DNA from: Patescibacteria group bacterium
Lineage (GTDB): Bacteria > Patescibacteriota > Patescibacteriia > Patescibacteriales > JBAZCA01
Reading direction: 5' to 3'
DNA: 64,000 bases
Assembly (NCBI GenBank): GCA_041671125.1
Contig: JBAZCA010000001.1
Coordinates: forward strand, 200,120-264,119
Under the pieces are notes generated by a model. That model was not told where the DNA came from and ran no database searches. It saw nothing but the letters and a program-made list of their open reading frames with translations. Shown piece by piece: positions 1,817-43,214 of the stretch (positions within the stretch are counted from its first letter, which is position 1; each line of letters starts with the position of its first letter). The translations under genes were made by a program, and so were the position numbers.

Positions 1817-2107
1817 TCATAACACATGGTCATCGTGAGGGTGCGATAAAATCATCAAATCAATTTGCTTGTCCCAAGGCGGCATGACATCCGACAATCG
1901 CTCAACCAACCGGGAGTTAGGTCCCCCGTCTATTAAGATATTCTGCCCGTCCGGGGCTTTAATAAGTATCGCGTCTCCCTGGCCGACATCTAAAAAGTCC
2001 GCTTCCAGCTTTTTCGGCGGATGGTAAAAAATCCCGAACAAAAAAACCGCCCCCAAGATCGCCGCGGCGCCGGAAAAAATTATTAGCAATTTTACTCTAT
2101 GGCTCAT
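1817..2107 (-). pseudogene. Truncated ComEC/Rec2-type metallo-beta-lactamase domain gene (N-terminal 96 aa only)
   Basis: A signal-anchor helix is followed by ..FLDVGQGDAILIKAPDGQNILIDGG.. and ..ILSHPHDDH.. The ORF stops two codons after the HxHxDH motif, whereas an MBL fold needs more than 200 aa. The stop coincides with an abrupt switch to AT-rich sequence. Confidence 0.6.
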
Positions 2108-2137: not shown

Positions 2138-2166
2138 GCGGAGGCGAGACGGCGTCTCGCCTCCGC
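2138..2166 (-). terminator. Perfect 13-bp GC-rich hairpin just after the stop of the 2979-aa gene
   Basis: GCGGAGGCGAGAC-GGC-GTCTCGCCTCCGC. There is no U-tract on the minus strand, so terminator function is uncertain. Confidence 0.35.
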
Positions 2167-2176
2167 TTAATTATAA

Positions 2177-5100
2177 CTATTTTATCTCTATATTTTTCCG
2201 AAGTTCCACATTCTTTTTGAGTTCCACCGGCGAAACGTCCATTGTTGTGCTGAACATTATCCAGCCGCCGTATCCGGTGCCAGCAGAATTGGTCGCGTAT
2301 GACCGGATGTAATAGGTCGTGTCGTGAGTGAATCCGGCCAAAGGCAAGGAAAAGACTCCTGTTGAAAACGACCCTGTTTCGTGCGTCTCCCAAGTACCGG
2401 TTTCGGTAAGCCCGTATTCAAAACCGCGCGCAATAACGGTTGATCCGCCAATACTGGTAATATCGGCATTGGCTGACGCGCCAGTGTCGGTTATGGAAGA
2501 AACGGCGCTGGTGGTTATATCCGGTGTCGGGTCTCTATAACCTCTGTCCGCAGTTGAAGTTTGGCTGACTGAACCGGTAGCGCTTAATATGCAGTGAAAA
2601 TACCGCCCGCTCCCGTCAGTCGGCGCGCCGGTGTCGTTGTAGGGATTAGTGATTCCTCCGCTGATATCGGAATAAGAGGCGTCTGAATCGTCGGCGGATC
2701 TTTGCCACTGGTAAGTAAGGCTTTGCGCTCCCCGATAACCCGTATCCGTGAGACTGTCGGGACTGTCGCCGGACGCGTTAAAAGCGACAACTTTATAAAC
2801 ATGAGTTGTCCCGTTGGCCGCGCTTTCGCCGGAAAGAGACAGCGCGACATATTCCTTATTCGTTCCGTCTGTGGCGCCGGCCGTTCCAGGCGTAATCACC
2901 GGGGGATCAGCGCCACTGTCATTGTATGTCGCGACGTCACCCAGGTCGCCGGAGACGCTAACATCATCCCGATAGACCCTGTAACCGGTGGCACCGGTGG
3001 ATTTAGTCCAGGTAACAACAACTTTTTCGCCGTAAGTCTCGTCAGTAGCCGCTACGTCAGATGGTTGGTCAGGAGGAAGGAGATAGTCTATACTTACCTC
3101 GGAAAGATACGGACTGACATTGGTGTCGGTTGCGGAAACAATGGCGCGATATTGGATGTAGCGGCTGTCCGTGCTGATGATGTTGGAAGTCGCCGCCGGA
3201 TCAGTAAGATAATTGGAAACCGATTCAAAATCATCCAGATATATATTTCTTCCTCCCAAGCCGTCGGTAAGGCGAAGAGTGAGATTTGTGGAAGCGTTGA
3301 TTTGATCATCCATTGCGCCGGTCAAATCCCAATATTCCCTTTGCCATTTGAAGACGGTGGCGTTCACCGTAAACCCGCCAGCAGGAAAAGTGGAACCGGC
3401 GTCCCAAGCGGATATTGTCACTGCGCCAGTGGAAGCGGCAACGGCCGTTGTTGTCCCTTGGGCGATATATTCCGTACCATTATAGTTTTCTTTGACGATG
3501 ACTTTATCACCGGTGTAGAGGTTGTCGCCTTTGTTGGTAGCGCCGTATGTTTGGGAATTGACAGTAAAGGATAAATCGTTGGTGTCAGCAATCAGATTGC
3601 CGGAGTCCAGCGACGCGGCAAAATCAATGGTGATAGGATGAGTGCGGCGACCGACTTCATAGGCTTGGCGGATTTCGGCGGCGGTACGGGCGGTATTGGA
3701 AATTCGAACTTCATCAATCAAACCGTTAAAAGCATCATTGGCATTTTGATCACCGAATATATAGGTATAGCCAGAAGGGGTATTAGGAACGCTAGCCGAT
3801 CCTGAGTAAAAAAGTGCTCCGTTAAGATAGCCGTACAACGTTCCGTTATCTCTTTTCATTACTATATGATTCCAACTGTTTGAACTTAGAGCTATATTTG
3901 TATCAACATCAATGACTCCCCCATATAAAAAGTGGATCTGGTGAGAATCACTGGAGTTCAAGTATATTCCCCAGCCCGAAGTTCCCGAATTGCCATTATA
4001 AACTAAATATTGACCATATCCCGTGCTGCTGCCGCTCCAATTAACCCATGTATCAATAGTAAAATTATTAGTTGCGGTGGTAACCACAGATCCCGTTGTG
4101 ATTTTATTTGTAGTAGCAGTATAATTTCTTGCTTTTCCAATTTTACCTTGGCTAAATGTCGTTCCAGTCGGCGTGCCATTATTTCCACTGCTTGAAGAAT
4201 CTTTGATATACGCTCCGGATCCGGATTGTTCTTCCAAATGCCAAAGTCCGACTGTATTGGCGTCCGGTTCATAATTGGCAAAAGCCGATTCACCGACTGT
4301 AGTTTCAAGATAGGTTCCCGGGCGATCGGCGGCAATATAGAACGGCAGTTTGGACGCGGAAGATAAATCAGTGGAAGAAATCGTCCGACTTAACCGATGA
4401 TCGCGTCCAGCGCGATAGGCTTCAGCGATTTCTTCGGCGGTGCGGGCTGTGTTAGAAAGTTTGATTTCGTCCATAGACCCATGAAAAAAACTTCCTCCGG
4501 CATTATCTTTACCTATAAGAAGAGAAGTGCTAATACCTCCGTTAGTCCAGGCTTTTGTTACAGAATTCTCCAGTGCTCCATCGATATAAATTTTAAGAGC
4601 CGTGCTGTCATATTGGCCAACAACAAGATGCCACTTGCCATCCGCAATGTTAGTAGTTCCTACCACCGATGCTTCAACACTGGAAGAATATATATAGACT
4701 GCCGCTTTTCCGGTTGTTTGCTCAACATAAGTTATAAAACCTTGAGCCGCGCTGCCTCGGTTATCCAAAATCGCCTGGTTACCTGCGGTATATGTTGTTT
4801 TTATCCACGTTGATGCTGAAAAATTTCCTGCGCCTATTGCCGGAATAGTAGCAGAAATGTAATCACTCGTTCCGTTAAAACTCCTTGCCTTCCCGGCAAA
4901 TCCGTCCGTAACCGTTGTTCCGGCTCCCCCCGCTATTCCATTACGCCCGTTCCCCGAAGAATCATAAGCGGTCGAACCGACCCCGACATTGGTTTCATCC
5001 AGATGCCAAAGGCCGACGGTATTGGCATCCGTTTGCGGCGCGCCTACAGAAGTCTGTAATGATCCTGTTCCCTCCTGCTTGGCCTGCGATTGTAATTTTT

Positions 5101-8100
5101 TAGTATAAGCAACCGGAGTAGTGATGCCAGAAAGGGAAGAAGAATAATTAACCGCGATGCGGCCGGATCCTCCAGCTCCCCCGTTATATCCCGATGCGAT
5201 TGTTCCTCCGGAACCGCCACTGGCAGTAACTGAACCGGAAATACCAACCGAGTTTCCGTCCAGGCGAATTGTGCCTCCACTGCCTCCTCCTGAACCCCCC
5301 GAGTACCTGGCACCGGAAACATAACAATAAAGCCCAGCTAAACCATTGTCTCCATTATTGGCAATAGATCCCGCCACGCTTATGGCATTACCGCTAATAT
5401 AAGCTATTCCTCCTCCATCGCCCTCGCCGCTAGCGCCCGAACGGCCGCAACTCCACCCGTCTCCGCCGCCGCCTCCGCCGGAGCCCAAAAAAATATTTGA
5501 TAGTTCGCTTGATCCTAACGTTCCGCCGCCTCCGCCGCCACCGGCATTAGTGCTATTGCCGTTTCCGCCAGATCCGCTTGCATAACTTCCAGAGCCGCCG
5601 TTATTTATTCCATAACCGCCTCCGCCGCCAGTTCCATAGCCTCCGCCTCCGCCGCCGCTTCCATAATTTCCAGCATAACCGCCTCCGCCACCCGCGCCTC
5701 CTAACGCGCTTCCGCTCCCTCCTGTTGAATTCACAGCGCTTCCTCCGCCAATCCCTCCCCCTCCTCCGCCTGAACCTCCGGAGGCATACCAATTGCCATT
5801 ACCGGCAGCTCCGCCAAAACTATTTCCTCCATAAGCCATTCCCGTTGATCCTGCCGTAAATCCTTTTCCTGTAACACTGACCGCTCCGCCGCTATTCACT
5901 GTTACCGTTCCATTAGATCTGAAAAACAACACTCCATTTTTCGTTCCGTTCCAGGCCGTAATAGTGAGAGTGGCCGCCGCGCTGCAACCTCCGCCTGTAT
6001 TTCCTCCGCAAACAGTAACATTTCCAAAATTTGGCACTCTTTGTACCATAATTTTTTGAGTGGTTCCGTCATAAGTATTTTTGAGAGGATAGTCGGTGAA
6101 GTTCAAATCATTAGTAGAAATAGAAGAGATAATATGAGTCTCATATTGGCCGACGGAGTTGTAGTTAGTGCTTGTTCCTTGGAGATTAATAATGAGGATT
6201 TCGTCACCCGCGGCGAGTCCAGTTGGGGTAGCGGAAACCGTGACTGATGTCTCTCCCGTTTTTTCCAAAGTGGTGTCGGAAAAATTTACCGCGTAGGCCG
6301 TAGCTCTGGCACTGCTATTGCAAACAGCTGAACCGGCGTCAGAATCCAATGTTTTGGTGCCGTTATCAATGATGCAATCCCCGTCATCGCCAGTACCAAT
6401 GTTTATTCCGCCGACTTTACTGATGGTTGAGTCTGAATTCATATAAGAATCAACCTGCCAGGCAGTTGATTCCGTATCCATTGACGCAATCTGTGTCTCC
6501 GTTCCTGCGCCTGCCGGTTTCCAGGCTTCCCAGTTATAGTCGTCAGTGGGAATGATATAATCAAGGGTAACGTCATCCAAAACCGGAGTGTCTGTACTAT
6601 CGCCGCCAAAAGCAATTTTATAATAGAAATTGGCGCTAGCGGTCCAGCCGGACAACGTGATGGTATTGTTTACCCCCGTAGTCAGTGTTTCCGAACCGGA
6701 ACCCTTGTCTTTGTTGTACCAATTAGTCCCGTCCTGGCTAAATTGGATCGTGGCGGTTGTACTGCCGGGCTTGGCGGAAAGATTATAGACAAATGAGGTA
6801 ATGGAATTCACACTGCTCACGCCCGTCAACAGGTTAGTAGAAATAACTGTGCCGGACGTTTGATAACCCACCAAGTCTCCCTGAGCGGTATATGCCGTGG
6901 GACTCGTTGTGCCGGAAGGTGCAGAGTTATAATAAACAGCTATGCGACCCGAACCGCCGGCACCACCGCCGCCAGCGTTGGAACTGCCAGTGCCACCGCT
7001 CGCTGTAACCCTTGATGTATTCAAAGTAGCTGTATTTCCTTGAATCAAAATACTTCCCCCGGAAGATCCTCCTTTTCCGCCCGTACCATATGTGCTTGAA
7101 GCTTCGGCTGCATTCGCGCCATTGGCAGTAATTGATCCGGAATTATCAACTACAAGATTATTACAAAAAATTGCAATTATCCCTCCGGAACTATTATTTA
7201 CTTGTCCCGCGCCCGGACTACCAAAATATAATTGAGAAAGATTTTCTGCTCCATAGGCAACACCTCCTGCTCCGCCTCCGCCTCCGCCGCCGCCGCCAAT
7301 AGTCCAATTTCCACAAGTATCAGCGCCATTTCCTCCGACCGTACTGCCATTTACTCCATTACAATTTCCGGTATAGCTTGCCCCTCCTTTGCCTCCGCCG
7401 CCGGCTGTTCCATATCCTCCTCCTCCGCCGCCGCCGCCTCCGCCGCCGACACCTGTTTCGTCGCCAATCACGCCAGGAGCTCCGCCTGCTGCTGAACCTC
7501 CATTTCCTCCTGCTCCACCATACCAACTTCCTCCTCCGCCGCCGCCCGATCCTCCCGCCCCGCTATAGCCGATACTTCCTCCTCCGCCACCGCCGCCAAA
7601 ATAGACATTATTGCCATTATGAGAGCTACCGCCATTACCGCTTCCGGCACCTGCGCCACCGCCGGCACCGCCGCCGCCACCATTACCGCCATAGCCAATC
7701 GCCCCTAAACCTTTAGTACCTCCGCTAGAAGCTCCGTCCACTCCGTTTTGTCCAGTACCGCCATTATTGGCGCCATTGCCTCCATCTCCACCACCGGTAG
7801 TACCCCCTGTTCCCTTGACCCCAATGGGTCTGGTGGAATATTGTCCGCCTCCGCCTCCGCCTCCGCCTCCATAAGCATAAGTACCTCTGTATGTCTCACT
7901 ATTATTATAGCCAAGCGTTTCGGCGGATACTTTTCCTCCATTATTCACTGTTGCCGTCCCATTGGCATAAAAAGCCACGATTCCGGTATAAAAACCGGCG
8001 TTGCCAGTCGGCGCAGTGGCGAGAGCATCCCATCCTGAAGCCGTGATCGTTCCCCCATTTTCCACAGTCACATTGGTATATTGAGGAATGCGCTGAACAA

Positions 8101-11116: not shown

Positions 11117-11132
11117 TTATATATAAATAAAA

Positions 11133-11830
11133 TTACTTCGCGCACCTGAACCCGACGTCGTCCATCGCTTCGTGCGGGGCGTGCGAAAGATCCAGCGAAT
11201 AAATTCCATTTTCTCCCCGGACAAAGCCGCGGACTTTGTCCGATGACTCTCCGGTGATGATTTTGCCTATTCCATTGTCAGTGTCATTCATATAATACGG
11301 CGGACGGATGTTGCCGAGCGATTTGTAGGAAAAAACGTTTCCATATTCTTCCCAGCCGCCCGCTCCCGCCAAAGGCATATCTTCCTGGTTTACGATTCCC
11401 CTGGTCCATTCGCCCATACCGGCTAATTCATATATCATATTCCCGTTAGTCAGGATAAAGGGCGTGGAGCTGGCCGATTCGGCAAGATTCGCCGCGGTTG
11501 ACGTCGCCAGCTGTAAACCGTAAATATTCGGATCAATATCATTACCCTCTGCCCGGATAATATTATCCGCGATGGTGAGCCATTCTGAATCGCTCATTAA
11601 ATGATAGCCTTGCCCAAGGCTCTGGCATCTTATGTCCGCCTCGCCTTGGCTGATTCCTGTCCAAACCGGATAGCTGTTATCAACAATATTCGCTAAATTC
11701 GTTTCTGATCCGTTTTCATTCGCGAGTTTAACCATGACGCAGAAGCCCGGAAGCGTTCCGTATTCAGCCGAACCCGGAATCCAGGTAAATCCTTCATCGC
11801 AATAACCTTCATAAGCTCCGGCGACGACTT
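11133..11830 (-). other. C-terminal C-type-lectin-fold-like domain (FGE-sulfatase / DUF1566-like)
   Basis: ..WTGISQGEADIRCQSLGQGYHLMSDSEWLTIADNI.. with the terminal ..VGFRCAK. Confidence 0.45.
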
Positions 11831-20800: not shown

Positions 20801-23800
20801 AGAACAGAGCTACTGCTCCATAGGTGATGGTTGTGCCGGAGATTGTTGCCACGATAGCATTGCCGTAACCTGTAGAATTGTTTCTATAAGCAATAATGGC
20901 TTTGTCGGTACCAAGTGAAGCAATGGAAATGTAGGAAGTATTGCCGGAATAAAAGGTAACCGGCGTGCTATAGGTTACGGTTGACCCGGAAACCGTTGCC
21001 ACCACCGCTTTTCCATAATAACTATTATCATAATCCGAATAAGCCACTAGAATCTTGTTGGTGTCTATTTGGGTAGCATACATTGGACTATCGCCAGCAA
21101 CGCTCGCCCCCGTTTTCATCCTCCCCTGATCCTGGCTATCCTTGAAATCATTCAAAACCAACTGTTCCAAACTGTTGTAATCTTTCATCGCTTGTCCGGT
21201 CATTTCCCAACTGCCCGAAGCGATGGCATCGGTGTTGGAAAAAGCCGTTACCACGGTGGCGGTGATGGTAGTTTGGGCCGCCGGGTCGGCGTTGATGATG
21301 GCCTCTCCCCCGTTGCCGGTAATTCTCATCCCTTTTTTCACTTTGGCGTTGGTGTTCCAGTTGCCGCTGCCCAAAGTGAGCGTTACGTCTCCGGTAGTGG
21401 CGCTCGGAGTGAGGGTAGTGGAGTAGGCTAAGTTTTCTATGTCATAATTTGCTTCATCAGCGATATCCATATCCAAAGAATCATCTGTGTTGGAGTCTCC
21501 GGTGGCGGAAAGAGTGCTGACATTTTGCCAGACTGTGCCGTTGGAAACCCAGGCATCGGCAACGACATCGGTGGTGTTTTGTCCGTGATTGACATCCAAG
21601 TATCCGCCGGGAGCCACCAGGCCGGAGTTGGTGTAGAGGTCATAATCAGAACTGCCGCTACCGGAACCGATAGCCAGCCAACTGCCGCCGCTGTTTTTGT
21701 ATTCCAAAGTTCCACTGTTGTCCCGGATGCCATAGCCGGAAGTCCCGACGGCTGATCCAAAATTTAAATAACGGCTGGCTCCCGATAATATAACGTCTCC
21801 GTTAACGTCCAAAAGAGCCAAAGGTTCCGTCGTCCCGATGCCGACGTTGCCATTCTCGTCTATCTTTAAAGCTACGTCCGCGCCGCTTCCTATCGTTGTT
21901 ACAGCTCCGGCTACGTTAGGGGTGATGCTTAAATTTCCGGCGGCGCTGACGAGAAAATCAACGTAATGCGTCGCGTCATAACCTAGTGTGAGCTGGTTTC
22001 CATCGGAAGAAAAAACCGAAAGCTTTGAAGCCGGACTGGTCGTCCCTATCCCGACGTTGCCGATTGAGCTCATAAACAGGGATGAGGTGGCCTGGGCAAG
22101 ACCATTATCGTCGCCGACGATCATGTAGCCCTTGGCCAGGAAAATATCGGAAATGGCGTTGTACCAGTCATCGTCAACGTCCAGCTGATTTCCGGTCCAG
22201 GTTAAATGATTGCCGTCGGTAATCCGGTTGGACGGGACATCGTAGAAAGCGTTCCAGTTGGTAGTGGAAGCAGTCAGCGGTATATTGTAGCCATCGGTAA
22301 GAGTTAGGAGTCCGGTTCCGGTATCATAATCCAGTCCGGCCGCACCGTTAGTTAAAATATTCAAAGAAGAGGTGGCAATATCTTCCCAGCTCGCGCCGTT
22401 GTAGTAGATCAGTCCTCCATAGGCTACGCCGATTACGTCAACATCGGTCAAATCATCTAAAGTCGCGACCGCGCTGGAATCGCCCCAGTAAAGATTACCT
22501 AAACCGTTAGTCAGGAGCGACTGGCCCGTAGTTCCGTCCGCGCCGGGTAATGTCCAGACTATATCAGAAGTCATAGTGGAAGTGGCCTTCAGTCCGGCGT
22601 AATTCATTCCGCCGGTTCTTAATTCATAAAACCTGAGTTCACCCTGATTTTCTATGGCGGCGTTGCCGTTCACGTCCAAGAGAGCCAGTATCGGCGTAGA
22701 AGTCCCGATGCCGACGTTGCCGGAAATATATGCAGTGCCGTTTACGTCAAAAGTAGCATTATGATCGGCTGAATTGATTGCAACTTTTCCATTAGTATCA
22801 ATTGAAAAATCGGCATAACCGCCATCTCCATTCTTTCTTCCAATGTATAAATTAGTTGCTGATGAAGACAATGCCCCAACTATGCCTCCAGTATCTCCAA
22901 CCCATTCAAGAGCATTATTAGCCGCAGTTGTACTAAACCGAGAAGCAACACCTGAAGGAGCACTTACTTCTAGTCGGTATCCAGGACTCGTCGTCCCGAT
23001 GCCGACGTTGCCGGAGTTTAAAATTCTCATGGCTTCGGTCGCGCCGTTATCGCCAACTTTAAAAATCATATCCGCGCCGGTTATGCCGGTTACGGAAGTG
23101 GTCTGCAGGATCAGTCCGTCAGCCGCGTTAGCTCCGCCAATAAGAGTCTGGCCTCCCGATCTTCCGGCTAGCAGGGCGTATTGAAGATGATCGTCGGCGA
23201 TAAGGCCGGCTAAATTTGAATGATAAGCCAGTCCGGCAGGATTAAAATTATTGGAAAAAGCGCTTTCTACCGTATTAATGGCGGCGTTATTTTTTTGGAT
23301 AATAACCCTGCCGATTAAAACTCCGGCGCCGGTAATGGAGGGCGGAAGGTCCTGCGGCGCTCCTTCGGCTTGGGCGGCGGTTACACTGGCATAATCTCCC
23401 CGGCCGTAAACCGTGGACAGTTTAGGTATAGTCCCTAAAACTATATACATCCAATGAACGCCGTAGTTGCCGTCAGTCAAAGCCGCTAAACCGCCGTCGC
23501 CGTCATCATAAGAGGTGTTGTCAACCTGCTTTTCGCCTTCAATATGCGTCCAGCCTCCGGCGCCGTTCCGATAATGGGAATCAAAAACGCGATCAACCGT
23601 TGCTCCGGCCGCCGAAGTGTCAAAAGCGCCATGATCAATCCGTAAAAGCGAGTAGTAAAAACCGCCGGCCGAAACCAATAAGTAGCGATTGCTGTTTCCC
23701 AAAAGCGATCCGCCGCTAACATGAGAAAAAGGTTCGGTTTCATAATTTTTTCTCCGCAGTTTTCTGTTCGCATCAATATTTTGGTTCCGACCGTCTAAAA

Positions 23801-26800
23801 TAGACAGCTCGGTTCCCTCCCGGACAACGGTGTAGAGATGGCATTTATTAAGGCAGTTGTAATCGCTTGAAACCGTAGAAGTCTCTACCGCCGGATTGCC
23901 TGAATTATAACTTACAAAAATGTAGTTGGTGGTGTTGTCGGTTAAAGCTAAATTATTCGCCGCCGGAAAATCAACGCTTTTTAAGGGAGCGGTGTCGGAA
24001 GCAGAAGTCCGAAGCATCGCTTCTCCGGCGGAAATATCAACTGTCCCGTCGCCGTTATCGGTGATGCCGCCTCCGAAAACGACTCCGGCGCTCCAGATAT
24101 AATCATAAGCGCCGTTCAGGTTGGTTATCACTGACGGACTTCCAACCGTGGGAACTGCTACGTCCGAAAGGCTGATTGTCGTCCAGGCCGGAGCTCCCAA
24201 CCCGTCGGATTTAAGAAAACCCGCCGCCGCCGCCAGTCTGGACGGCAATCCGGACGCTCCGCCATAAAGAATATCCCCTAAAGCCGTCATGGGATTGGCA
24301 ATCAGCGTTCCGGTTAAAGGCAAAGTAAGAGTGGTATCGCCGATTGTGGTAAATGTAAGCGAGTTAGCGCCGAAGTTAACTGTTTTATTGTCTTCTCCGG
24401 CAAGAACTAAACTGTTGTTAACCGTAAAAATTTTTCCGTCAGCGATCGTTAATGTCGCGCCGCCGGACGGAGCGGTAATAGTAATTTTGTTATAAGTTCC
24501 TCCGGTAATGTTGCCGTCCAAATTAAAATTTCCGCCGACATAATAGCTTCCGGTTGTCGTCGCGTTCCCGCTATGATAAAAACCGCCGTCAAAAAAACTG
24601 TCGCCGACAACGCTAAATCTTCTTGACGGCGTCGTCGTTCCTATGCCAACGTTACCGCCGTCCAAAATCGTGAACACATTGCTCAATCCGTCATATAAAT
24701 CAAGGATGTTTCCGGCGTCGTTTTGGGTTATGGTGAGCGCCGAAGCGGTAGAAGAAGCCGCGGTTATCGCGACCGTCCCCCCGTCATTAATTACGAAACG
24801 ATCAGTTCCGTTATCTTTAAACTCCGCCAGCCTGCCGGTTCCATCGTAATTTAAAACAATGGCCGGCGTTGCTGAAGCGCTGTTTATCGTCATCTGCCGG
24901 CTGTTTATAACTATCTCGTCAGTTGTTGAAGCATAGCCCAAGGTTAAAAGGCTATTTATAGTATCAAGGCTGATATTATTTCTCGTCCCGTCGCCGTAAG
25001 TAAAAGCCGTCGTTGAGGCCGAACTGCCGCGGAGCGCTCCGGCGAGGTATATATCTCCGGTGAGAGTCGTCGTTCCGGTCCAGCTCGTATTGCCGGTTAC
25101 AATAAGGTCACCGGTTATGGAAGTATTGCCCGTTATGCCGACATCTCCGGCAATAGTTGTCGTTCCGGTAAGGGTGGTATCTCCAGTAACGGCAAGATTG
25201 CCGGTAAAAGCTGAATCACCGGTTGTATTAACGCCCGCCGTAATGGTGATTATGTCGTCAGTCGTATTAACCGAAAAAGTATCGTCCGTCCCGTCAGACA
25301 CCGTTAAAGCGGAAGTGGAAGATTCGCTTATTGTCAAAACATTATTTATGGCAACGGCGCCGCTTACGACAAGGCTTGATCCAAAAGTCGCGCTTCCGTT
25401 TATATTCGCCGGGCCGTCCGTGCTTATTCCGCCTTTGCCGGACGATAGTCCGTAAGCGCTCATAAGACCGCCGACGCCGAGCGACGAAAAGAATGAGTGG
25501 CCGGCGGAAAAAGTTCCGTAAACATCAAGGTTGCCTCCGACTATTTCGTTGCCCTGAATATAGGCGTCTTTTAAGACGGTTAACTTTTCTCTCGCTGTTA
25601 TGTTGTTGGCGTAAACATCATTTAAATTCAGGTCTCCGGAAAATTCCGCCGCCCCCTCTACCCGAAGAGAATTGACTGACAGGGCGCCATGCACGTCCAT
25701 ATCATCTTCAACAGTAAGATTGCCAAAATCGTTATAGATCCCCTTCCTGAAATCCGCCCCTTCGGCCGAAACCAGCCCGCCGTTAAACCTGGCTGTTTTT
25801 CCGACGACGAGGTTGCCGTCAAACTCGGCATTGCCTTTAACTGAAACCGCTATTTTCCCCGGCCCGGGCTTGGCGTTTACTTTATTTGCCCATAATCCCC
25901 CGCTTACGTTCAAGTCCCCTTTAACCGTATTGCCGGTTATAACCCGGGTAACCGAAATAGCCGGGCCGTAAGTTTTTGACTGCGACGGGACAGCCGCGAT
26001 TTTTTCTCCGGCCACGTCCTGCCTGCTTCTTTCGGTATCACCATCAACAAAAGCGGGCTTGCACTGCGTAGCTTCAGCGAAGCAGTGTTCAAAATTTTTG
26101 TACAGGGTATTTTCCGGATAGTTGTAAACCTGAGCGTACTCCAGGGCGAATTTTTTCTTAACCTTATCCGGGATAATTAAATCCAAAGTCCTGGCGTAGA
26201 TATCTTCAGCCGACCAAAACGACCGGCCGGATTCGCGAGCCAGGTACTTTCCGCTTAAATCTTTGTAACGAATAATTGAACGGTTGGTATTTTCCAGGTT
26301 TTCGCCCAGTCCGGAAAAAGCTTTTTCCGCCGAGACCGAAACCCGGGCCAAGCCGTCCATCGCCCCGATCGCGAGGTTGCCGGCGGCGATTCCGGATTTT
26401 AACAGTATTCTGTCCAGTCCGATCCGAATATTCCCTAAAGCGGTTTTATTGCCGTCCGCTATCTTCTTTGGATTAAGCGCGTCCCCGGCTCGGGCAATAC
26501 TCTCAATAGCTTTTCCAGCGGACGAGTTAAAACCGTCTTTTGCCCCGCTTAAAGCTCCTGCTATTTCACCGGCGGTTTTTTCCGAAGTAGCGCCAAGGTT
26601 GTTTTTAGCGGCGCCCAAGGCTTCGGCTGCTTCTTTGCCGGTTTTCGTTAAATTATCGCCAGCCGAATTTTTTGTTTGCTTAAGGCTTTGCGAGAGAGTG
26701 AATGACATTTCATCCGCGAGCGGGGCCGGATTAAGCAAAGCCTTTTTAGAGTCAACTGAACGGGCGATTTTATTAATGCCGGATTTCAAAGCTGATGAGG

Positions 26801-28088
26801 CGTTATTCATCGCTCCGGAAATATTCCGCGCCGCGCGGGAAAAACTTCGGGCTATAACAGAGGCTGTTTTTTCCTGGCCGCCTTTTAGTCCGGCCGCCAG
26901 TTCTCCAGTCGCGCGGCTTAAAGCTGTTAATACGCTTTTTGTCCGGCTAGCCGTAATCGCGGCAAGAGCGTTAACCCGGCTTAAGGCGCCCCCGGCGGCT
27001 GAACCGGTCAAATCAGCTGATTTTTTTCCGGCGCCGGTTAAACTATTAAAAACTGACAAGGCAATATCGCGTCCTTTTAAGCCGGCATCTTCGGTCATGC
27101 CGACGGTCTTTTCAGAAGCGCCCGAAATGCCTTTTGAAAGAATGCCTACCGCGTTTCGGCTGTTTACTCCAACCGCTCCGGCGATCTCCTTTGCTTTGCC
27201 GGCCGCCTGGCCGGAAACATCCGCGGCTTTTCCCGCGGCCAATTTGCCATCAGCGCCAAACTCCGAAACCGCCAAGCTGGCGGTATTACTCAAATTTTCT
27301 CCGGAGCGAAAAACCAGACCGGCCATATCAGTTGTTTTTTGCTTTGAAAATCCGGCGGAGCTTTTGGTCAGTTCTCCGGCGCGGTTAACAGCTTCTTCCA
27401 CTTCCCTAAACCCGCTAAACGCCAGCCGGGAAATTCCTGAGGCGTCAAAGCTAAAATCAAAGTTTCCGGCTAAAAGAGTCGCGCCTTCCATAAAAGAATT
27501 GATTTTTTTTCCGACCGTTTCGATTCCGGCTTTAGCCAGCTCTTTGCCTGGTATAATTTTATCTTTGGTAATTTCTTTTAAACCCCGGGCAATAGCTTTC
27601 TTTTCACTTTCAAGCCGTTGGCCGTATTCTTTTACCCCGTCCAGGTTCAGCCCGAGCGCCGCGCCGCGGAAAGAGCGGGCAACGGATTTTCCCATTCTTT
27701 CAAAATCGGCGAATACCTCGGGCGAGTAGCGAAAAACCATGAAAAAAATAACCGCCATTATCACGGCCATGGCCGGAGACTGGATATTGAATATTATTTT
27801 AGGACCGGTTATCCCTGATTGCCCGTTTCGCGCGGTTTCCAGAGAACGCTCATCCGCCATAGTTTTGGCCTCAACGGATTTTTTCTCCTGGGCATGGCGT
27901 TCCAAATATTCATTAAACCACTCCCGGGTGGTAAAAAAGTTCCGGCCGACGCGCCTGGCTTTAAGGCTTTTTCTCTGGACTAAAATAGAAAGATAGGCCG
28001 CGCTATAGGGGCCCTCTTTGGCAAACTGCCGAAGCGGTAAAAGCTTCTTTAAATCTTCACTTTTCTCTTCATTCCTCTGGACAAGCAT
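11133..28088 (-). CDS. Giant (5651 aa) single-pass membrane protein with a cytoplasmic HTH and a fibrous extracellular region (beta-helix, tail-fibre-like repeats, duplicated 1463-aa module, lectin-like C-terminus)
   Basis: One uninterrupted ORF whose stop lies 16 nt upstream of the start of the 2979-aa gene. About 16 copies of the motif (S/G)GN(V/I)GIGT(T/S)xP...L(D/S)V are present. Beta-helix-like repeats include ..TGNLAVTGDTTLTGTTTIAGDVGITGNTSITGDLIVTGNTSWTG.. See the sub-features listed below. Confidence 0.85.
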   Translation of the reverse strand: MLVQRNEEKSEDLKKLLPLRQFAKEGPYSAAYLSILVQRKSLKARRVGRNFFTTREWFNEYLERHAQEKKSVEAKTMADERSLETARNGQSGITGPKIIFNIQSPAMAVIMAVIFFMVFRYSPEVFADFERMGKSVARSFRGAALGLNLDGVKEYGQRLESEKKAIARGLKEITKDKIIPGKELAKAGIETVGKKINSFMEGATLLAGNFDFSFDASGISRLAFSGFREVEEAVNRAGELTKSSAGFSKQKTTDMAGLVFRSGENLSNTASLAVSEFGADGKLAAGKAADVSGQAAGKAKEIAGAVGVNSRNAVGILSKGISGASEKTVGMTEDAGLKGRDIALSVFNSLTGAGKKSADLTGSAAGGALSRVNALAAITASRTKSVLTALSRATGELAAGLKGGQEKTASVIARSFSRAARNISGAMNNASSALKSGINKIARSVDSKKALLNPAPLADEMSFTLSQSLKQTKNSAGDNLTKTGKEAAEALGAAKNNLGATSEKTAGEIAGALSGAKDGFNSSAGKAIESIARAGDALNPKKIADGNKTALGNIRIGLDRILLKSGIAAGNLAIGAMDGLARVSVSAEKAFSGLGENLENTNRSIIRYKDLSGKYLARESGRSFWSAEDIYARTLDLIIPDKVKKKFALEYAQVYNYPENTLYKNFEHCFAEATQCKPAFVDGDTERSRQDVAGEKIAAVPSQSKTYGPAISVTRVITGNTVKGDLNVSGGLWANKVNAKPGPGKIAVSVKGNAEFDGNLVVGKTARFNGGLVSAEGADFRKGIYNDFGNLTVEDDMDVHGALSVNSLRVEGAAEFSGDLNLNDVYANNITAREKLTVLKDAYIQGNEIVGGNLDVYGTFSAGHSFFSSLGVGGLMSAYGLSSGKGGISTDGPANINGSATFGSSLVVSGAVAINNVLTISESSTSALTVSDGTDDTFSVNTTDDIITITAGVNTTGDSAFTGNLAVTGDTTLTGTTTIAGDVGITGNTSITGDLIVTGNTSWTGTTTLTGDIYLAGALRGSSASTTAFTYGDGTRNNISLDTINSLLTLGYASTTDEIVINSRQMTINSASATPAIVLNYDGTGRLAEFKDNGTDRFVINDGGTVAITAASSTASALTITQNDAGNILDLYDGLSNVFTILDGGNVGIGTTTPSRRFSVVGDSFFDGGFYHSGNATTTGSYYVGGNFNLDGNITGGTYNKITITAPSGGATLTIADGKIFTVNNSLVLAGEDNKTVNFGANSLTFTTIGDTTLTLPLTGTLIANPMTALGDILYGGASGLPSRLAAAAGFLKSDGLGAPAWTTISLSDVAVPTVGSPSVITNLNGAYDYIWSAGVVFGGGITDNGDGTVDISAGEAMLRTSASDTAPLKSVDFPAANNLALTDNTTNYIFVSYNSGNPAVETSTVSSDYNCLNKCHLYTVVREGTELSILDGRNQNIDANRKLRRKNYETEPFSHVSGGSLLGNSNRYLLVSAGGFYYSLLRIDHGAFDTSAAGATVDRVFDSHYRNGAGGWTHIEGEKQVDNTSYDDGDGGLAALTDGNYGVHWMYIVLGTIPKLSTVYGRGDYASVTAAQAEGAPQDLPPSITGAGVLIGRVIIQKNNAAINTVESAFSNNFNPAGLAYHSNLAGLIADDHLQYALLAGRSGGQTLIGGANAADGLILQTTSVTGITGADMIFKVGDNGATEAMRILNSGNVGIGTTSPGYRLEVSAPSGVASRFSTTAANNALEWVGDTGGIVGALSSSATNLYIGRKNGDGGYADFSIDTNGKVAINSADHNATFDVNGTAYISGNVGIGTSTPILALLDVNGNAAIENQGELRFYELRTGGMNYAGLKATSTMTSDIVWTLPGADGTTGQSLLTNGLGNLYWGDSSAVATLDDLTDVDVIGVAYGGLIYYNGASWEDIATSSLNILTNGAAGLDYDTGTGLLTLTDGYNIPLTASTTNWNAFYDVPSNRITDGNHLTWTGNQLDVDDDWYNAISDIFLAKGYMIVGDDNGLAQATSSLFMSSIGNVGIGTTSPASKLSVFSSDGNQLTLGYDATHYVDFLVSAAGNLSITPNVAGAVTTIGSGADVALKIDENGNVGIGTTEPLALLDVNGDVILSGASRYLNFGSAVGTSGYGIRDNSGTLEYKNSGGSWLAIGSGSGSSDYDLYTNSGLVAPGGYLDVNHGQNTTDVVADAWVSNGTVWQNVSTLSATGDSNTDDSLDMDIADEANYDIENLAYSTTLTPSATTGDVTLTLGSGNWNTNAKVKKGMRITGNGGEAIINADPAAQTTITATVVTAFSNTDAIASGSWEMTGQAMKDYNSLEQLVLNDFKDSQDQGRMKTGASVAGDSPMYATQIDTNKILVAYSDYDNSYYGKAVVATVSGSTVTYSTPVTFYSGNTSYISIASLGTDKAIIAYRNNSTGYGNAIVATISGTTITYGAVALFSTVMSTAYISVAQLGTDKAIIAYDNSSNYGNAIVASVSGTTITYGSAVQFSVVATYISAAQIGTDKALITYAGASSYGNAIVATVSGTTISYGSAVAFKSVATSFVSVAPLGSDKAIIAYQAGGAGYARVASISGTVVSYGTEATFNSASSQSVSSAPLGADKAIITYRDDGDSSYGHAITASVSGTTISYGAESTYFSNYTYYTAVAKSDTDKALVIGAYNAGVSTGRVASVSGTTISLGADEPFGYYYDTDYFYFSAAQIDTDKVLVAYQGAFGAGFVKVGTVSGSTVTYGAPVSFYTAAAEYISLVKLDTNKALIAFKASSSTGSAVVASVSGTTVSLGATVAFNSTYTIYVSAAPLGTNKAIIAFADNVDSYFGHAIVASVSGTTITYGAETIFNSGANTLYISATQLTTDKALIAFSPSASYYGYAIVASVSGTTITYGSAVNFNAAATYYNSVVKVDTDKAIIAYSDTGDSAYGHAITASVSGTTVTFGGETTFSDAAITQAPALTSPGSNQASVVYWQTGGNIYVKNLAVNGTTLSADDEGLDLGSMYDGYGGSYPAAAYANDHSLYYISLDSSNYGANVHLIENQFSPIDSLYITATTDTNQLDSSYWTNINSIAATETTNGETIDYAVSYDDRATWKIYDNTDGDAGWRPIARNNSGTWQYNANTATGLTSVTWTAATTNTQAGALDQAMQVTANQMTGTEMNALTDAQQESSGGYAVGSTETLDFAVGMETTTGLTPAVNGITVTYEQSQYQLRIQDSNTVRFYNNSADTVTARIAVSLNGSGSSAGYWAQATGGINYAGGNVGVNTAIPLALLDVNGKIAFGSGSAADPGLAFRSDLNTGLWSSGADTLNFSTNGLERLRIDSSGNVGIGTTSPTARLSVKGDGTNPIFNLFDGAGAEKITVLNSGYLGIGTTNPDYELDVNGDLGINQFIHHNDDTDTTLSFDDNRFRGYIGGKYLLDLYKGAQDYVKLGDGTDVDINLNDKLFVEGSSGNVGIGTTSVSAYKLNVAGTLNATEIYSNGVLLSPGTGSNWSVSGADIYRTAGNVGIGTTDPNYELDVAGDINISGNYYVNGALLTAGMGGSGTIGYLPKFGTATTLADSVLFDNGGNIGIGTSTPSHTLDVNGNLGIAASGYFNFGSIDGSDGYGIRDNSGTLEYKNSGGSWLALGSGGVDSDYQLYTNSGLVAAGGYLDVTHGQNTTDVVADAWVSNGTVWQNVSTLSATGDSNTDDSLDMDIVDESNYDLDNLAYATTLTPSATTGDITLTLGSGNWNDNAKVKKGMRITGNGGEVIINDDPAAQTTITATVVTAFTNTDPIASGSWEMTGQAMKDYNSLEQLALNDFKASQDNGKIKTGVYFTGSTNYISAVQISANKVLVAYAEYGYFGTAVVATISGSSVTYGTPVVFNSTRIDYVSVAKIDTDKAIITYQDTSADTLGKAIVASVSGTTITYGTEAQFNGATTILISATQLTTDKAIIAYRDSDTFGKAIVASVSGTTITYGAEAQFNAATSEISATQLTTDKAIIAYKEDSDGYGKAVVASVSGTTITYGAEAQFNTSFSYISATQLTTDKAIIAYRDSDNFGKAIVASISGTTITYGAEVQFNGTDTTYISATQLTTDKAIIVYKDSDTFGKSIVASVSGTTITYGAEASYFSSIVGFTAVGKADTDKALVIASVNGSNNSTGRVADVSDTTISYGADEPFSYSLYTSSYPVSATQLSSDKVLIAYAGTTAGYAVVASVSGTTVTYGTRVSFNAGASMLGISTAKLSTDKAIIAYFESAGSYTGKAIVASVSGTTITFGAAAIFNSSTYTNTPYISVTQLTTDKAIIAYKHYDAFGYARVASVSGTTITFGTQAQFNGTDTSYISATQLTTDKAIITYQDSDALGKAIVASVSTATITFGTETQFNGTASTHISATQLTTDKAIIAYRDSDTFGKAIVATASGVNVSYGTETTFNSAATYFPAIAAYNSTDVGVAYKSSGSNYYYLNLAVSGTNITIDAKNPIDLGAVYSTTLGSLAITYFPNNKLAYVNVGNGNYGLNIHVFESIFSPIDSLYITTTTDTNQLDSSYWTNINSIAVTETTNGETIHYAVSYDDRSTWKIYDNTDGNAGWRPIARNNSGTWQYNANTATGLTSVTWTAATTNTQAGALDQAMQVTANQMTGTEMNALTDAQQESSGGYAVGSTETLDFAVGMETTTGLTPAVNGITVTYEQSQYQLRIQDSNTVRFYNNSADTVTARIAVSLNGSGSSAGYWAQATGGINYAGGNVGVNTAIPLALLDVNGKIAFGSGSAADPGLAFRSDLNTGLWSSGADTLNFSTNGLERLRIDSSGNVGIGTTSPTARLSVKGDGTNPIFNLFDGAGAEKITVLNSGYLGIGTTNPDYELDVNGDLGINQFIHHNDDTDTTLSFDDNRFRGYIGGKYLLDLYKGAQDYVKLGDGTDVDINLNDKLFVEGSSGNVGIGTTSPGYKIDVISTATGVPSARFTGADTSSGIRLDTTFSQVDSRNWFIGANSTAYGDFAIKTSNALAGDPIAAGTTRLLIDKSGNIGIGTTSPSAGLHIGSAASGKNVKIANGYLCVDNNDTCTGATVAGTVYAVGAYATGADYAEYFKTADSDLKSGEVVCIDITRENGVKRCDRGADNNVMGIVSTQPSIVGNNSKEIALNPSGYAIVGMLGQVDAFVSAENGPVRVGDSLTSASSTPGYAMRAEGGDSTVGIALESKLEGTGKIKVLISRRNKSLAVEEVEKLVSDRVADMAIEDEVNRLIASAVEQLNLDSKIGEIVDPKLFMLSTELTVTTDDLTSKIEELRIKNYELRDEIFNFSAVAKALADAQLSMINNFSIINNQTLLLSDQWLVVNGRLDELASSTAEILDNRRDGRFGADGGATVTIITSATTTEVAIMEIKTASTTAQTAFIVNQIGSGDVADFKSGEVSIMNITSGGKVAIVGELEVDGRILVCSSGACSSRLDEKVDDTLGDLGVEGKVVAGAYEGYCDEGFTWIPGSAEYGTLPGFCVMVKLANENGSETNLANIVDNSYPVWTGISQGEADIRCQSLGQGYHLMSDSEWLTIADNIIRAEGNDIDPNIYGLQLATSTAANLAESASSTPFILTNGNMIYELAGMGEWTRGIVNQEDMPLAGAGGWEEYGNVFSYKSLGNIRPPYYMNDTDNGIGKIITGESSDKVRGFVRGENGIYSLDLSHAPHEAMDDVGFRCAK
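12580..12990 (-). other. Tail-fibre / pre-neck-appendage-like C-terminal segment (possible Peptidase_G2 or intramolecular-chaperone type)
   Basis: ..GAYATGADYAEYFKTADSDLKSGEVVCID...VMGIVSTQPSIVGN.. This was recognised from memory of phage fibre proteins and was not HMM-verified. Confidence 0.35.
13386..17400 (-). repeat. Large intragenic module, copy B (C-proximal). The upper bound is approximate.
   Basis: 13386-14324 is identical to 17775-18713 by direct comparison; the first mismatch is at 14325/18714. Similarity continues at a lower level through the repeat array and the ..GYGIRDNSGTLEYKNSGGSWLA.. segment. Confidence 0.9.
14760..16710 (-). repeat. Array B: 13 tandem units of about 48-49 aa, several nearly identical at nucleotide level
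   Basis: The anchor GCTTTGTCGGTGG recurs (with G or A immediately 5-prime) at 15912, 16059, 16206 and 16350, giving spacings of 147, 147 and 144 nt. Peptide units read ..GKAIVASVSGTTITYGAEAQFN...ISATQLTTDKAIIAYRDSDTF.. Confidence 0.85.
17775..21790 (-). repeat. Large intragenic module, copy A (N-proximal). The upper bound is approximate.
   Basis: Collinear with 13386-17400 at a constant offset of 4389 nt (1463 codons, in frame). Confidence 0.9.
19150..21095 (-). repeat. Array A: 13 tandem units of about 45-50 aa
   Basis: The unit consensus is roughly G.A(I/V)VA(S/T)VSGTT(I/V)(T/S)YG....F......Y(I/V)S...L.TDKA(I/L)IA(Y/F). Thirteen (V/I)SG(T/S)T cores were counted. Confidence 0.8.
27726..28088 (-). 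other. N-terminal excisionase/MerR-like HTH (about aa 15-65) followed by a single TM helix (about aa 104-121)
   Basis: ..LLPLRQFAKEGPYSAAYLSILVQRKSLKARRVGRNFFTTREWFNEYLE.. fits the HTH_17-type pattern. The TM helix reads ..SPAMAVIMAVIFFMVFRY.. Confidence 0.55.
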
Positions 28089-28202
28089 GGGGAAAATTTT
28101 TGAGAAAAAACGATGTTAAAAAATTCTATTTAATATTAGCTATTATTCTGACTCTTTAATTATCAAATTATTATCCTGATATCGCTGTCTTACTTATCCA
28201 CA

Positions 28203-28231
28203 ATTATAACAAAATTTTTCCAATGCCGCAA
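28203..28231 (-). promoter_or_regulatory. Candidate promoter of the giant-gene operon
   Basis: The minus strand reads TTGCGG, the 17-nt spacer cattggaaaaattttgt, then TATAAT. This is an extended -10 (TGtTATAAT) about 115 nt upstream of the ATG at 28088. Confidence 0.55.
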
Positions 28232-28243
28232 TTAATTAATTTG

Positions 28244-28340
28244 CGTGTGAGCAAATTATCCCGAGCCTGAAAGCGAGGGATCTCTCGTGTGAGCAAATTA
28301 TCCCGAGCCTGAAAGCGAGGGATCTCTCGTGTGAGCAAAA
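28244..28340. repeat. 2.3 tandem copies of a 42-bp unit immediately upstream of the candidate promoter
   Basis: The unit CGTGTGAGCAAATTATCCCGAGCCTGAAAGCGAGGGATCTCT occurs at 28244-28285 and is identical at 28286-28327. A partial unit CGTGTGAGCAAA sits at 28328-28339. Each unit holds an imperfect palindrome, ATCCC..GC-CTGAAA-GC..GGGAT. Confidence 0.9.
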
Positions 28341-28348
28341 CTACCAAA

Positions 28349-28369
28349 AAACCCTCTTGGCGAGGGTTT
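28349..28369 (-). terminator. Rho-independent terminator
   Basis: The minus strand reads AACCCTC-GCCAA-GAGGGTT followed by TTTTGG. Confidence 0.7.
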
Positions 28370-28385
28370 AAAAAAGATAGGTAAA

Positions 28386-28404
28386 GACGCCCCGCCGGGG
28401 CGTC
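28386..28404 (-). terminator. GC-rich hairpin directly after the stop of the O-antigen-ligase-like gene
   Basis: GACGCCCC-GCC-GGGGCGTC. On the minus strand it is followed by TTTACCTATCTTTTTT. Confidence 0.6.
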
Positions 28405-28406
28405 TC

Positions 28407-42994: not shown

Positions 42995-43023
42995 ATTATA
43001 GCAGACGCCGGGAATAAAATGAA
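42995..43023 (-). promoter_or_regulatory. Candidate promoter of pilB
   Basis: The minus strand reads TTCATT, a 17-nt spacer, then TGcTATAAT (an extended -10), 67 nt upstream of the ATG. Confidence 0.45.
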
Positions 43024-43139: not shown

Positions 43140-43143
43140 TATG

Positions 43144-43214
43144 TCGGGCTGCTGGGAATCGAACCCAGTCTACACCCACCCGAAGGGCGCGTACTACCGG
43201 TATACTACAGCCCG
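43144..43214 (-). tRNA. tRNA-Pro (anticodon CGG)
   Basis: Hand-folded cloverleaf: acceptor CGGGCTG/CAGCCCG, D-arm GTAT-ACCGGTA-GTAC, anticodon arm CGCCC-TTCGGGT-GGGTG (U33, CGG, G37) and T-arm CTGGG-TTCGATT-CCCAG. The discriminator is A and no CCA is encoded. Confidence 0.9.

Follow-up and report, generated by a model that had tools for sequence, protein, structure and literature searches.

The window analysed here is a 64-kb stretch of a contig from a Patescibacteria metagenome-assembled genome (MAG), and all coordinates given below are window positions. Positions 2177-28088 are filled by two intact minus-strand open reading frames (ORFs), g1 and g2, which together encode ~8,600 residues. 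Both proteins are already in the NCBI database, from Patescibacteria MAGs: g1 exactly matches the "hypothetical protein" MFA6927800.1 from a 275.7-kb contig, and g2 corresponds to the "LamG domain-containing protein" MFA6393867.1 / MFA6927799.1 and has a 100% match in P0121. A first-pass annotation of the sequence had described ORFs of 5651 and 2979 amino acids (aa), 16 nt apart, in an episymbiotic small-genome bacterium. Both ORFs are found, and the database matches identify the organism as a Patescibacteria MAG; the start of g2 in NCBI and JGI is the ATG at position 11104, which gives a 2975-aa protein (100% identity) and a spacer of 28 nt. The putative transcription unit comprises the following features, listed in the direction of reading.

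28345..28407, minus strand: two terminator-like hairpins that end the preceding Wzy_C gene and shield g1 from it
28244..28339, minus strand: perfect tandem repeat of a 42-nt unit in 2.3 copies (TRF, 100% matches), ahead of the g1 promoter
28203..28211, minus strand: extended -10 box TGTTATAAT of a candidate promoter, 115 nt ahead of the g1 ATG and seen in the sequence itself
11133..28088, minus strand: g1, 5651 aa from ATG (ORF listing and exact database match)
2177..11104, minus strand: g2, 2975 aa from ATG (2177..11116 and 2979 aa if read from TTG)
2138..2166, strand not assigned: G+C-rich, palindromic 13-bp hairpin, 11 nt past the g2 stop (terminator scan, listed there on the plus strand)

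The spacer between g1 and g2 is merely 16 nt (TTG start) or 28 nt (ATG start), so that a terminator cannot fit between them, and a hairpin directly follows g2. These features support the tight linkage of the two genes. On the minus strand, the hairpin at 2138..2166 has no T-run; it likely marks the end of the transcription unit.

The g1 protein is built of modules that resemble parts of phage tail fibres, placed behind an N-terminal membrane anchor. From the N to the C terminus, it consists of the following segments.

27855..28067, minus strand: conserved HTH_17/excisionase-like domain (aa 8-78), predicted to be cytoplasmic
27729..27779, minus strand: single transmembrane (TM) anchor AMAVIMAVIFFMVF (aa ~104-120), read from the translation
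26169..27701, minus strand: Ala/Gly/Ser/Lys-rich low-complexity stalk (aa ~130-640), read from the translation
25089..25931, minus strand: beta-helix region (aa ~720-1000), with three stretches matching Pfam Bactofilin
21789..25091, minus strand: tail-fibre-like segments (aa ~1000-2100), with GNVGIGTT motifs and a globular insert at aa ~1290-1660
17775..21772, minus strand: duplication copy 1, consisting of domain X, propeller array, domain Y, and fibre (blastn self-comparison)
19134..21086, minus strand: double propeller array 1 (aa ~2335-2985), ~12-13 repeats of ~49 aa
13386..17374, minus strand: duplication copy 2, the same unit (blastn self-comparison); other assemblies break within these repeats
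14769..16691, minus strand: double propeller array 2 (aa ~3800-4440), 12 repeats with 48-54-aa spacing (TRF periods of 147 and 291 nt)
12579..12974, minus strand: gp12-type (Peptidase_G2) beta-tulip chaperone domain (aa 5039-5170), with predicted autocleavage at A5040|D5041 in GADYAEYF
12183..12566, minus strand: long alpha-helical, coiled-coil-like stalk (aa ~5175-5302), predicted as helices 186-219 and 226-313 with mixed confidence
11136..11804, minus strand: C-type-lectin / FGE-sulfatase-like knob (aa ~5429-5651), with conserved cysteines and ending in GFRCAK

The N-terminal domain has the consensus KLxPLRRFA..G.YS.AYLS.LVQRKKLKAKKIGRNYFTT.EWF.EYLE.HA and is found in 597 representative clusters at E <= 1e-3 (163 of them at E <= 1e-10), nearly always at the N terminus of proteins of 78 to 4486 aa. 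A hydrophobic helix typically follows it, as in g1. The HTH_17 profile matches 5 of 48 family members, with a best E value of 1e-4, and the excisionase family phrog_1840 is matched at 0.008. There is no Pfam match to this domain in g1 itself, and the family profile finds nothing in PDB. Aa 8-78 thus look, tentatively, like an HTH_17/excisionase fold. The sole match of the following stalk is a weak one to the tail of ZorA, far under the cutoff.

The beta-helix region matches the Bactofilin domain (E = 4.1e-7; 30.6 bits versus a cutoff of 27.9), as well as phrog_5070, phrog_7964, and, weakly, LpxD-type hexapeptides. The tail-fibre-like segments match phrog_5668, phrog_9942, and phrog_18345 ("tail fiber protein") with E values from 6.7e-8 to 6e-17 and recur in later stretches of g1, beyond aa ~2100. 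A relaxed regular expression finds exactly 16 GNVGIGTT-like motifs in g1. The GNVGIGTT segment is also similar, over only ~45 aa, to crystal constructs of the Bdellovibrio MAT proteins: 8ond_A (Bd2133; E = 5.4e-6), 8ojn_C (2.4e-4), and 8oml_A (5.8e-3). Pfam searches with 3,000-aa pieces of g1 were uninformative; splitting the protein by modules recovered Bactofilin and Peptidase_G2 and gave no match to Peptidase_S74. The NCBIfam search of g1 returned sub-threshold noise alone (ZorA, LpxD, MPN499, and IcmN). Domains X and Y and the repeats also gave matches to Tox-ODYAM1, Phage_lysozyme, and Bflower_3, all of which were under the cutoffs and were disregarded.

The central part of g1 contains an in-frame tandem duplication with a spacing of 4389 nt, or 1463 codons. 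In the blastn self-comparison, the copies are 97.5% identical over 1259 nt (17775-19033 versus 13386-14644) and ~69% identical over the remainder. Each unit consists of a ~230-aa domain X, 12 to 13 repeats of ~49 aa, a ~230-aa domain Y, and more fibre. The AlphaFold2 (AF2) model of array 1 is all-beta, with four-strand blades arranged in two halves and a mean predicted local distance difference test score (pLDDT) of 86.7, and in Foldseek it resembles generic tandem propellers (Elp2, DDB1, and Utp) with E values down to 4e-11. Array 1 is thus predicted, with high confidence, to form two tandem beta-propellers, and array 2 is read as a second such pair. The array is shared by ~780 database proteins, mostly of ~850 aa and from uncultured marine phages, and the whole X-array-Y unit by just three, one of them from a Patescibacteria MAG. 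The best match of the array in BFVD is an 865-aa viral protein (29% identity); a tblastn search of 50,697 isolate-phage records with the array finds nothing. In the virion structural module of a 60.5-kb Tara Oceans phage contig (L002), the gene for one of the phage proteins, P0032, follows Phage_capsid_4 and two SU10_adaptor genes (positions 10001-12559). P0032 is assigned to no PHROG or Pfam family, and isolate phage genomes contain nothing that matches it.

The C-terminal ~660 aa of g1 (aa 4990-5651) form a cassette of chaperone, stalk, and knob that is shared at 42-54% identity over >90% of its length by ~40 proteins, almost all of them annotated as "partial". A PDB sequence search with the 662-aa cassette gives no significant match. 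The chaperone domain matches Peptidase_G2 (PF11962) at aa ~5019-5095 (E = 2.7e-8; 33.9 bits versus a cutoff of 25), and the same match is precomputed on many homologues. Its AF2 model (pLDDT ~90) is similar to 3gqh_A (E = 4.5e-4, TMt 0.55), 3suc (4.1e-4), and 6qyy, and Foldseek also relates it to the phi29 head-fibre base gp8.5 and to phage decoration proteins. An hhalign comparison places A5040|D5041-Y-A-E-Y-F of g1 on S691|D692-F-A-E695-Y-F of phi29 gp12, with an E value of 0.015 and a probability of 3%; because this score is weak, it is chiefly the Pfam and fold matches that support the homology. In mature gp12*, residue 691 is the last (PMC6542822). Of 80 related loci, 78 have the motif xADYAEYF, and the chaperone domain has no match in the same set of isolate-phage records by tblastn. 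The AF2 model of the knob (pLDDT ~90) resembles TaqVP (5vf4; E = 5e-4), Mtd (1yu4), and snake-venom C-type lectins. The knob family has invariant Cys and Trp columns, and its homologues P0291 and P0292 have a precomputed PF03781 match.

Unlike the chaperone of gp12, that of g1 is not terminal: it is followed by ~480 residues in g1 and by 184 to 1408 residues in all related loci. Since it precedes the coiled coil and the knob, gp12-like cleavage would set a 611-aa unit of base, stalk, and knob apart from the fibre. The site may not be cut at all; if it is, the tip either stays attached non-covalently or is meant for release. The near-invariance of the motif argues that the site is functional. 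On a more speculative reading, the site is cut so that the 611-aa unit, as a trimer, would be released or passed to the host surface; the order of its parts is like that of the phi29 head fibre gp8.5. In five related loci (L038, L070, L076, L077, and L078), several chaperone-carrying ORFs start with a Hint/intein-like sequence (...VWDIEVEGTHNFVAG/N...HNT), which suggests either inteins or bacterial intein-like domains in some of these giant genes, or split ORFs.

The g2 protein begins with an N-terminal anchor, followed by LamG domains 1 and 2, two Gly-run modules flanked by beta-rich repeats, LamG domains 3 and 4, and a C-terminal region.

10958..11011, minus strand: hydrophobic anchor or signal segment IGATVFLLAIIAGSPFAW at the N terminus of g2 (translation)
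8597..10084, minus strand: LamG domains 1 and 2, with the best Pfam stretch at aa 404-560 and NTVGLWH- and AQWNFNE-type starts in the translation
5117..8479, minus strand: two Gly-rich modules, with G runs at aa ~1080-1290 and ~1760-1900 (TRF repeats at 7526-7595 and 7844-7870)
3647..5044, minus strand: LamG domains 3 and 4, with Laminin_G_3 stretches and Laminin_G_2 at aa 2144-2221
2180..3649, minus strand: C-terminal region of ~490 aa, which recurs downstream of g1-like genes at six other loci (L008, L014, L033, L034, L051, and L080)

Four stretches of g2 match Laminin_G_3 (E = 4.1e-96). The C-terminal ~490 aa have no Pfam match, nor has the Gly-rich region itself, although many g2 homologues carry Gly_rich_2 (PF21722). 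A PDB sequence search with g2 finds nothing significant. At E <= 1e-10, g2 has 255 homologues; the 120 that were listed range from 1,658 to 5,094 aa, and all nine with an organism name come from the Candidate Phyla Radiation (CPR). With its multiple Laminin_G_3 domains, a length above 1,500 aa, and an N-terminal hydrophobic anchor, g2 belongs to a giant LamG family of the CPR. The downstream partners at other loci likewise start with a hydrophobic segment.

The domain content read from the sequence in the first-pass annotation is borne out in each of its elements: the four LamG lectins by the Laminin_G_3 stretches, the poly-Gly modules by the two in g2, the beta-helices by the Bactofilin-like region above the cutoff, the roughly 16 tail-fibre-type motifs by the exact count, the repeat arrays by two sets of 12 repeats of about 49 aa, and the lectin-like C terminus by the C-type-lectin fold in AF2 and Foldseek. 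That annotation did not mention the duplication, the gp12-type chaperone with its cleavage motif, or the N-terminal HTH-like domain.

The cassette and the pairing of the two genes recur in other CPR genomes. A search of the GTDB species genomes with the cassette profile gave at least 95 matches, of which 80 loci, nearly all CPR by record title, were kept. The lectin knob is present at ~37 of the 80. Downstream DNA of >=5 kb is available at 57 loci, and 23 of these show similarity to LamG or to the g2 C-terminal region downstream on the same strand, in 17 cases within 3 kb of the stop codon. The reciprocal case is found in GCA_040960315.1 (L007), where a truncated gene with a GADLAEYY region is followed, after a 1-nt gap, by a g2 homologue. 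Orthologues that share the N terminus and the promoter of g1 (5651 aa) are 1653 and 2505 aa long and have no propeller arrays, suggesting that the family grows and shrinks by modules. At another related locus (L005, 4519-10001), 5.5 kb of DNA without a called gene or long ORF precede a 1234-aa homologue of g1 modules (P0002), which may represent the end portion of a larger gene affected by disruption or poor assembly.

Taken together, these data indicate that g1 and g2 are probably a co-transcribed pair of membrane-anchored surface proteins for recognition or adhesion. In this arrangement, g1 would be anchored with its N terminus inside the cell by one TM helix, leaving the small HTH-like domain in the cytoplasm and ~5,500 residues outside as a phage-tail-fibre-like, presumably trimeric fibre. 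Along this fibre, the stalk would be followed by the beta-helix, the GNVGIGTT fibre segments, the two double-propeller units, the chaperone, the coiled coil, and the knob. The gp12-type chaperone most likely drives trimerisation and may cleave itself at A5040|D5041. The g2 protein would be the membrane-anchored multi-lectin partner of g1, and the pair would recognise and hold glycans or proteins on the surface of another cell, the obvious candidate being the host of the episymbiont. No recognisable enzyme domain is found in g1 or g2. The four LamG domains, the tail-fibre PHROGs, the propellers, the knob, and the membrane anchors favour, by analogy, the adhesion or host-contact fibre of the first-pass annotation over an enzyme.

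The same annotation held that the combined architecture matches no described protein family, and this claim does not stand. The closest characterised analogue of g1 would be the MAT family of Bdellovibrio, whose members are structurally characterised surface trimers for prey recognition with varied tips, among them a C-type lectin resembling Mtd and one tip with demonstrated glycan binding (PMC10769870). Both would be cellular, not viral, fibres resembling phage tail fibres, on bacteria that live on other bacteria; the GNVGIGTT-type fibre repeat matches at the sequence level, the tips are modular and swappable, with the trimeric, Mtd-like C-type lectin of Bd2740 in the fold class of the g1 knob, and a phage-type intramolecular chaperone is found in both. 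However, g1 is ~5 times longer. MAT proteins, such as Bd2133, Bd2439, Bd2740, and Bd3182, start with a signal peptide and a conserved, beta-rich N-domain of ~130 aa (PMC10769870), whereas g1, by inspection, begins with the HTH-like domain and a TM helix. The chaperone of g1 is a G2/gp12 beta-tulip placed before the tip, and that of MAT proteins is of the S74 type and follows it; a MAT protein has at its C terminus either such an S74 chaperone or an adhesive tip of a non-S74 kind. The double propellers, the 4.39-kb duplication, the giant LamG partner, and the CPR lineage further set g1 apart. In one related Paceibacterota locus (L006, 6115-18698), four surface-protein genes lie between those for ClpP and RNase Y and encode a 798-aa Peptidase_S74 protein, a 465-aa protein, a 2004-aa propeller-repeat protein, and an 876-aa Ig_Rha78A_N protein. 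The presence of the S74 protein indicates that both types of phage chaperone, S74 and G2, are used by CPR surface proteins.

The D4 autochaperone of gp12, the pre-neck appendage (tailspike) of Bacillus phage phi29 (PDB entries 3GQ7, 3GQH, and 3SUC), shares with g1 the PF11962 match, the beta-tulip, the motif (S/A)|D-[FY]-A-E-Y-F at the position of the cut, and a beta-helical fibre preceding the chaperone. It differs in that it comprises the last 163 residues of the protein and is discarded, whereas the chaperone of g1 is internal, with the coiled coil and the knob after it; the sequence similarity is low. The ~850-aa propeller proteins of marine phages (P0032 and BFVD entry A0A516MG07) share the ~49-aa blade repeat, with 30-37% identity over ~600 aa, and the tandem-propeller fold. 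They are standalone proteins with N- and C-terminal segments of their own, whereas in g1 the array is part of a cellular fibre and is present in two copies.

Giant surface proteins that carry ConA/LamG-type adhesion domains have also been reported from Patescibacteria (Absconditicoccaceae and Vampirococcus) and from DPANN archaea (PMC13059738; PMC10266531), where they are proposed, not shown, to mediate host recognition (PMC13059738). Like g1 and g2, they are targeted to the membrane or carry a signal, have adhesion domains, and belong to episymbionts with small genomes; as far as these reports were consulted, they list domains such as Fn3, fibrinogen C, ConA, and integrin, and not the g1 cassette of tail fibre, gp12-type chaperone, and lectin, the HTH-TM anchor, or the pairing with a LamG gene. 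The cassette is found throughout the CPR, and g2 is one of a family of >250 giant LamG proteins. The locus elaborates, on a large scale and in a way specific to its lineage, CPR families that are conserved and already listed in the databases as hypothetical proteins.

Several points weigh against reading the pair as host-recognition proteins. About half of g1 (domains X and Y, aa 1290-1660, and the stalk) has no assignable fold, and 34 of the 57 informative loci have no detectable downstream LamG partner. Cleavage in the manner of gp12 would detach the presumed binding tip. The role in host contact, though a reasonable reading, is drawn by analogy with the tail fibres of phages and the MAT fibres of Bdellovibrio, and episymbiosis is deduced from the phylum and not from this genome. 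Finally, the central part of g1 (1.7 thousand aa) and the number of its units are backed by one assembly, the 275.7-kb contig, because two other assemblies break exactly at the duplication.

The 5651-aa length of g1 could in part be a product of assembly, with the unit number differing or the gene being interrupted, since short reads cannot resolve a 1.26-kb repeat. A contig from the European Nucleotide Archive (ENA; L001) ends g1 at aa 3172, within the near-identical repeat of copy 1, and a second NCBI MAG has g1 as partial pieces of 3166 and 791 aa, broken inside the two copies. The large in-frame duplication makes the length of g1 dependent on the assembly: as the 4389-nt unit is exactly in frame, its collapse or expansion would leave the frame open, and the number of copies does not follow from the frame being open. 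On the other hand, the copies are only ~69% identical over most of their length, so that both exist, and the homologue P0001 covers 97% of one whole unit at 62% identity. The ENA contig is 100% identical to the window over 22267-45236, save for one missing 42-nt unit, and the ends of g1, its flanks, and the whole of g2 are confirmed by independent assemblies, the flanks and g2 in two MAGs. A wrong length is a minority possibility that deserves to be taken seriously, and the uncertainty in the central repeats is real; it leaves the nature of the locus unaffected. Such genes break short-read assemblies and must be systematically under-represented or truncated in CPR MAGs.

The function of the pair could also be a structural one. 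As components of a layer that protects the cell or keeps others at a distance, such as an S-layer-like coat, a glycocalyx scaffold, or a phage decoy, the two proteins would use their lectin domains to bind the polymers of their own cell wall. Such a role would suit the membrane anchors on both, their extreme G/A/T/S content, the Wzy_C gene directly upstream, and the glycosyltransferase and MurJ genes in the window, and the presence of the N-terminal domain and TM module on many ~150-aa proteins suggests a general means of envelope targeting. We nevertheless regard a coat function as unlikely, as tail-fibre PHROGs, MAT repeats, an intramolecular chaperone, and a distal lectin knob are the modules of which receptor-binding fibres are made, and the strong variation of the orthologues in length and module content suits recognition proteins better than lattice-forming ones. 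The similarity of many modules to phage structural proteins, their closest relatives, might instead point to a prophage or tailocin remnant, with g1 and g2 as phage receptor-binding proteins. This origin is scarcely credible for a locus with N-terminal membrane anchors and native base composition at third codon positions (GC3), whose cassette is found among housekeeping genes in many CPR genomes. No phage genes (capsid, portal, terminase, tail, or integrase) are found among the genes of the window, where the neighbours have housekeeping functions: Wzy_C, RmuC, UvrA, a permease, PGA_cap, PilB, sigma-70, RecJ, LepA, DapAB, MurJ, and glycosyltransferases.

Diversity-generating retroelements (DGRs) are reportedly common in the CPR, and g1 might be the variable protein of such an element, with the knob hypermutated to follow changing ligands. 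The knob lies at the extreme C terminus, with GFRCAK at its end, and has the C-type-lectin/FGE-like fold of the DGR variable proteins Mtd of a Bordetella phage, TaqVP of Thermus, and TvpA of Treponema. These systems differ from g1 in that no template repeat or reverse transcriptase accompanies it: the last 800 nt of g1 (11100-11900) have no second copy in the window, no reverse transcriptase is found among the window ORFs, and no template-like repeat is found in 30 of 31 related loci, where a reverse transcriptase is likewise not found. A local DGR is thus largely refuted, and the idea as a whole is very improbable. In L021, a 59-codon remnant of the knob C terminus (14978-15155) is found 6.8 kb downstream of the intact gene, with which it shares 92.7% identity; its mismatches are not adenine-specific, which identifies it as a gene fragment and not a DGR template.

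An addition to the recognition role, rather than an alternative to it, would be that g1 also serves as a contact sensor. ToxR/CadC-type membrane-bound regulators share the topology of a cytoplasmic HTH domain and one TM segment. The HTH-like domain of g1 would be tethered by its TM helix to ~5,500 extracellular residues and might use the 42-nt repeat as an operator, so that transcription would respond when the fibre engages a host cell. We see only a slim chance that this is the case.

How the ultra-small cells of the CPR/Patescibacteria find and hold their hosts is largely unexplained. To our knowledge, type IV pili are the only CPR host-attachment factors with experimental support. The g1-g2 locus and its family offer a concrete candidate for a further one: a cell-anchored fibre put together from parts of phage receptor-binding proteins, with exchangeable modules, a lectin tip, and, often, a LamG partner. 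It would extend the cellular borrowing of phage tail fibres, as in the Bdellovibrio MAT proteins, to a second, unrelated lineage of cell-dependent bacteria, with a gp12-type chaperone that, unusually, lies inside the protein.

Upstream of g1, the two hairpins come first, followed by the 42-nt repeat, a weak -35 element (TTGCGG), and the extended -10 box. The first hairpin has an 11-bp stem at 28407..28383 (terminator scan), and the second, AAACCCTC..GAGGGTTTTTT, is seen both in the sequence and in the predicted fold. The consensus scanner missed the promoter because of its poor -35 element. The extended -10 promoter ~115 nt upstream of g1 and the upstream repeat array had both been noted in the first-pass annotation, and both are found, the box at 28211..28203 and the repeat as 2.3 perfect copies. 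In the form TG(G/T)TATAATTGT, as TGGTATAATTGT, the box is conserved ahead of the orthologues of g1 in L011 and L014, two further Patescibacteria genomes, where the start context TCCCCATGCTT is likewise kept. The sequence TGNTATAAT occurs 6 times in the window, versus 2.25 expected, with another copy upstream of the PilB gene. A separate TGCTATAAT box thus precedes this pilus ATPase gene by 67 nt (42995-43003, minus strand). Two exact 39-mers of the 42-nt repeat are present, versus 0 expected. The orthologues in L011 and L014 lack this repeat in their upstream regions, and the single unit by which the ENA contig is shorter reflects either variation in the population or assembly collapse.

The GC3 of g1 (0.53) and g2 (0.44) lies inside the range of the neighbouring genes, and the extra G+C of both is at codon position 2. 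Horizontal transfer, which the high G+C might suggest, was considered and rejected, as GC3 is normal and the excess at position 2 comes from the Gly/Ala/Thr/Ser-rich composition. Rfam and tRNA scans of the window find a tRNA-Pro at 43143-43214 alone. Directly upstream of g1, on the same strand, the gene at 28407-29900 (minus strand) encodes a Wzy_C membrane protein of the O-antigen-ligase type. PglL-type protein O-glycosyltransferases carry a Wzy_C domain, and this protein could glycosylate the Ser/Thr-rich giants.

Downstream of g2, a gene for an SMODS nucleotidyltransferase (782-1663, minus strand) lies in an island of 34% G+C with a GC3 of 0.27. It is directly preceded by a 96-aa ORF (1820-2107, minus strand) that encodes the N-terminal quarter of a metallo-beta-lactamase (MBL) domain and ends where the G+C content drops. 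The segment 782-2107 has the appearance of an MBL-domain gene into which foreign DNA, perhaps a defence island of the CBASS type, has been inserted. Translin-family proteins are unusual in bacteria; one is encoded at 40593-41165 (minus strand; PF01997, E = 3e-22), where it adjoins the gene for the type IV pilus ATPase.

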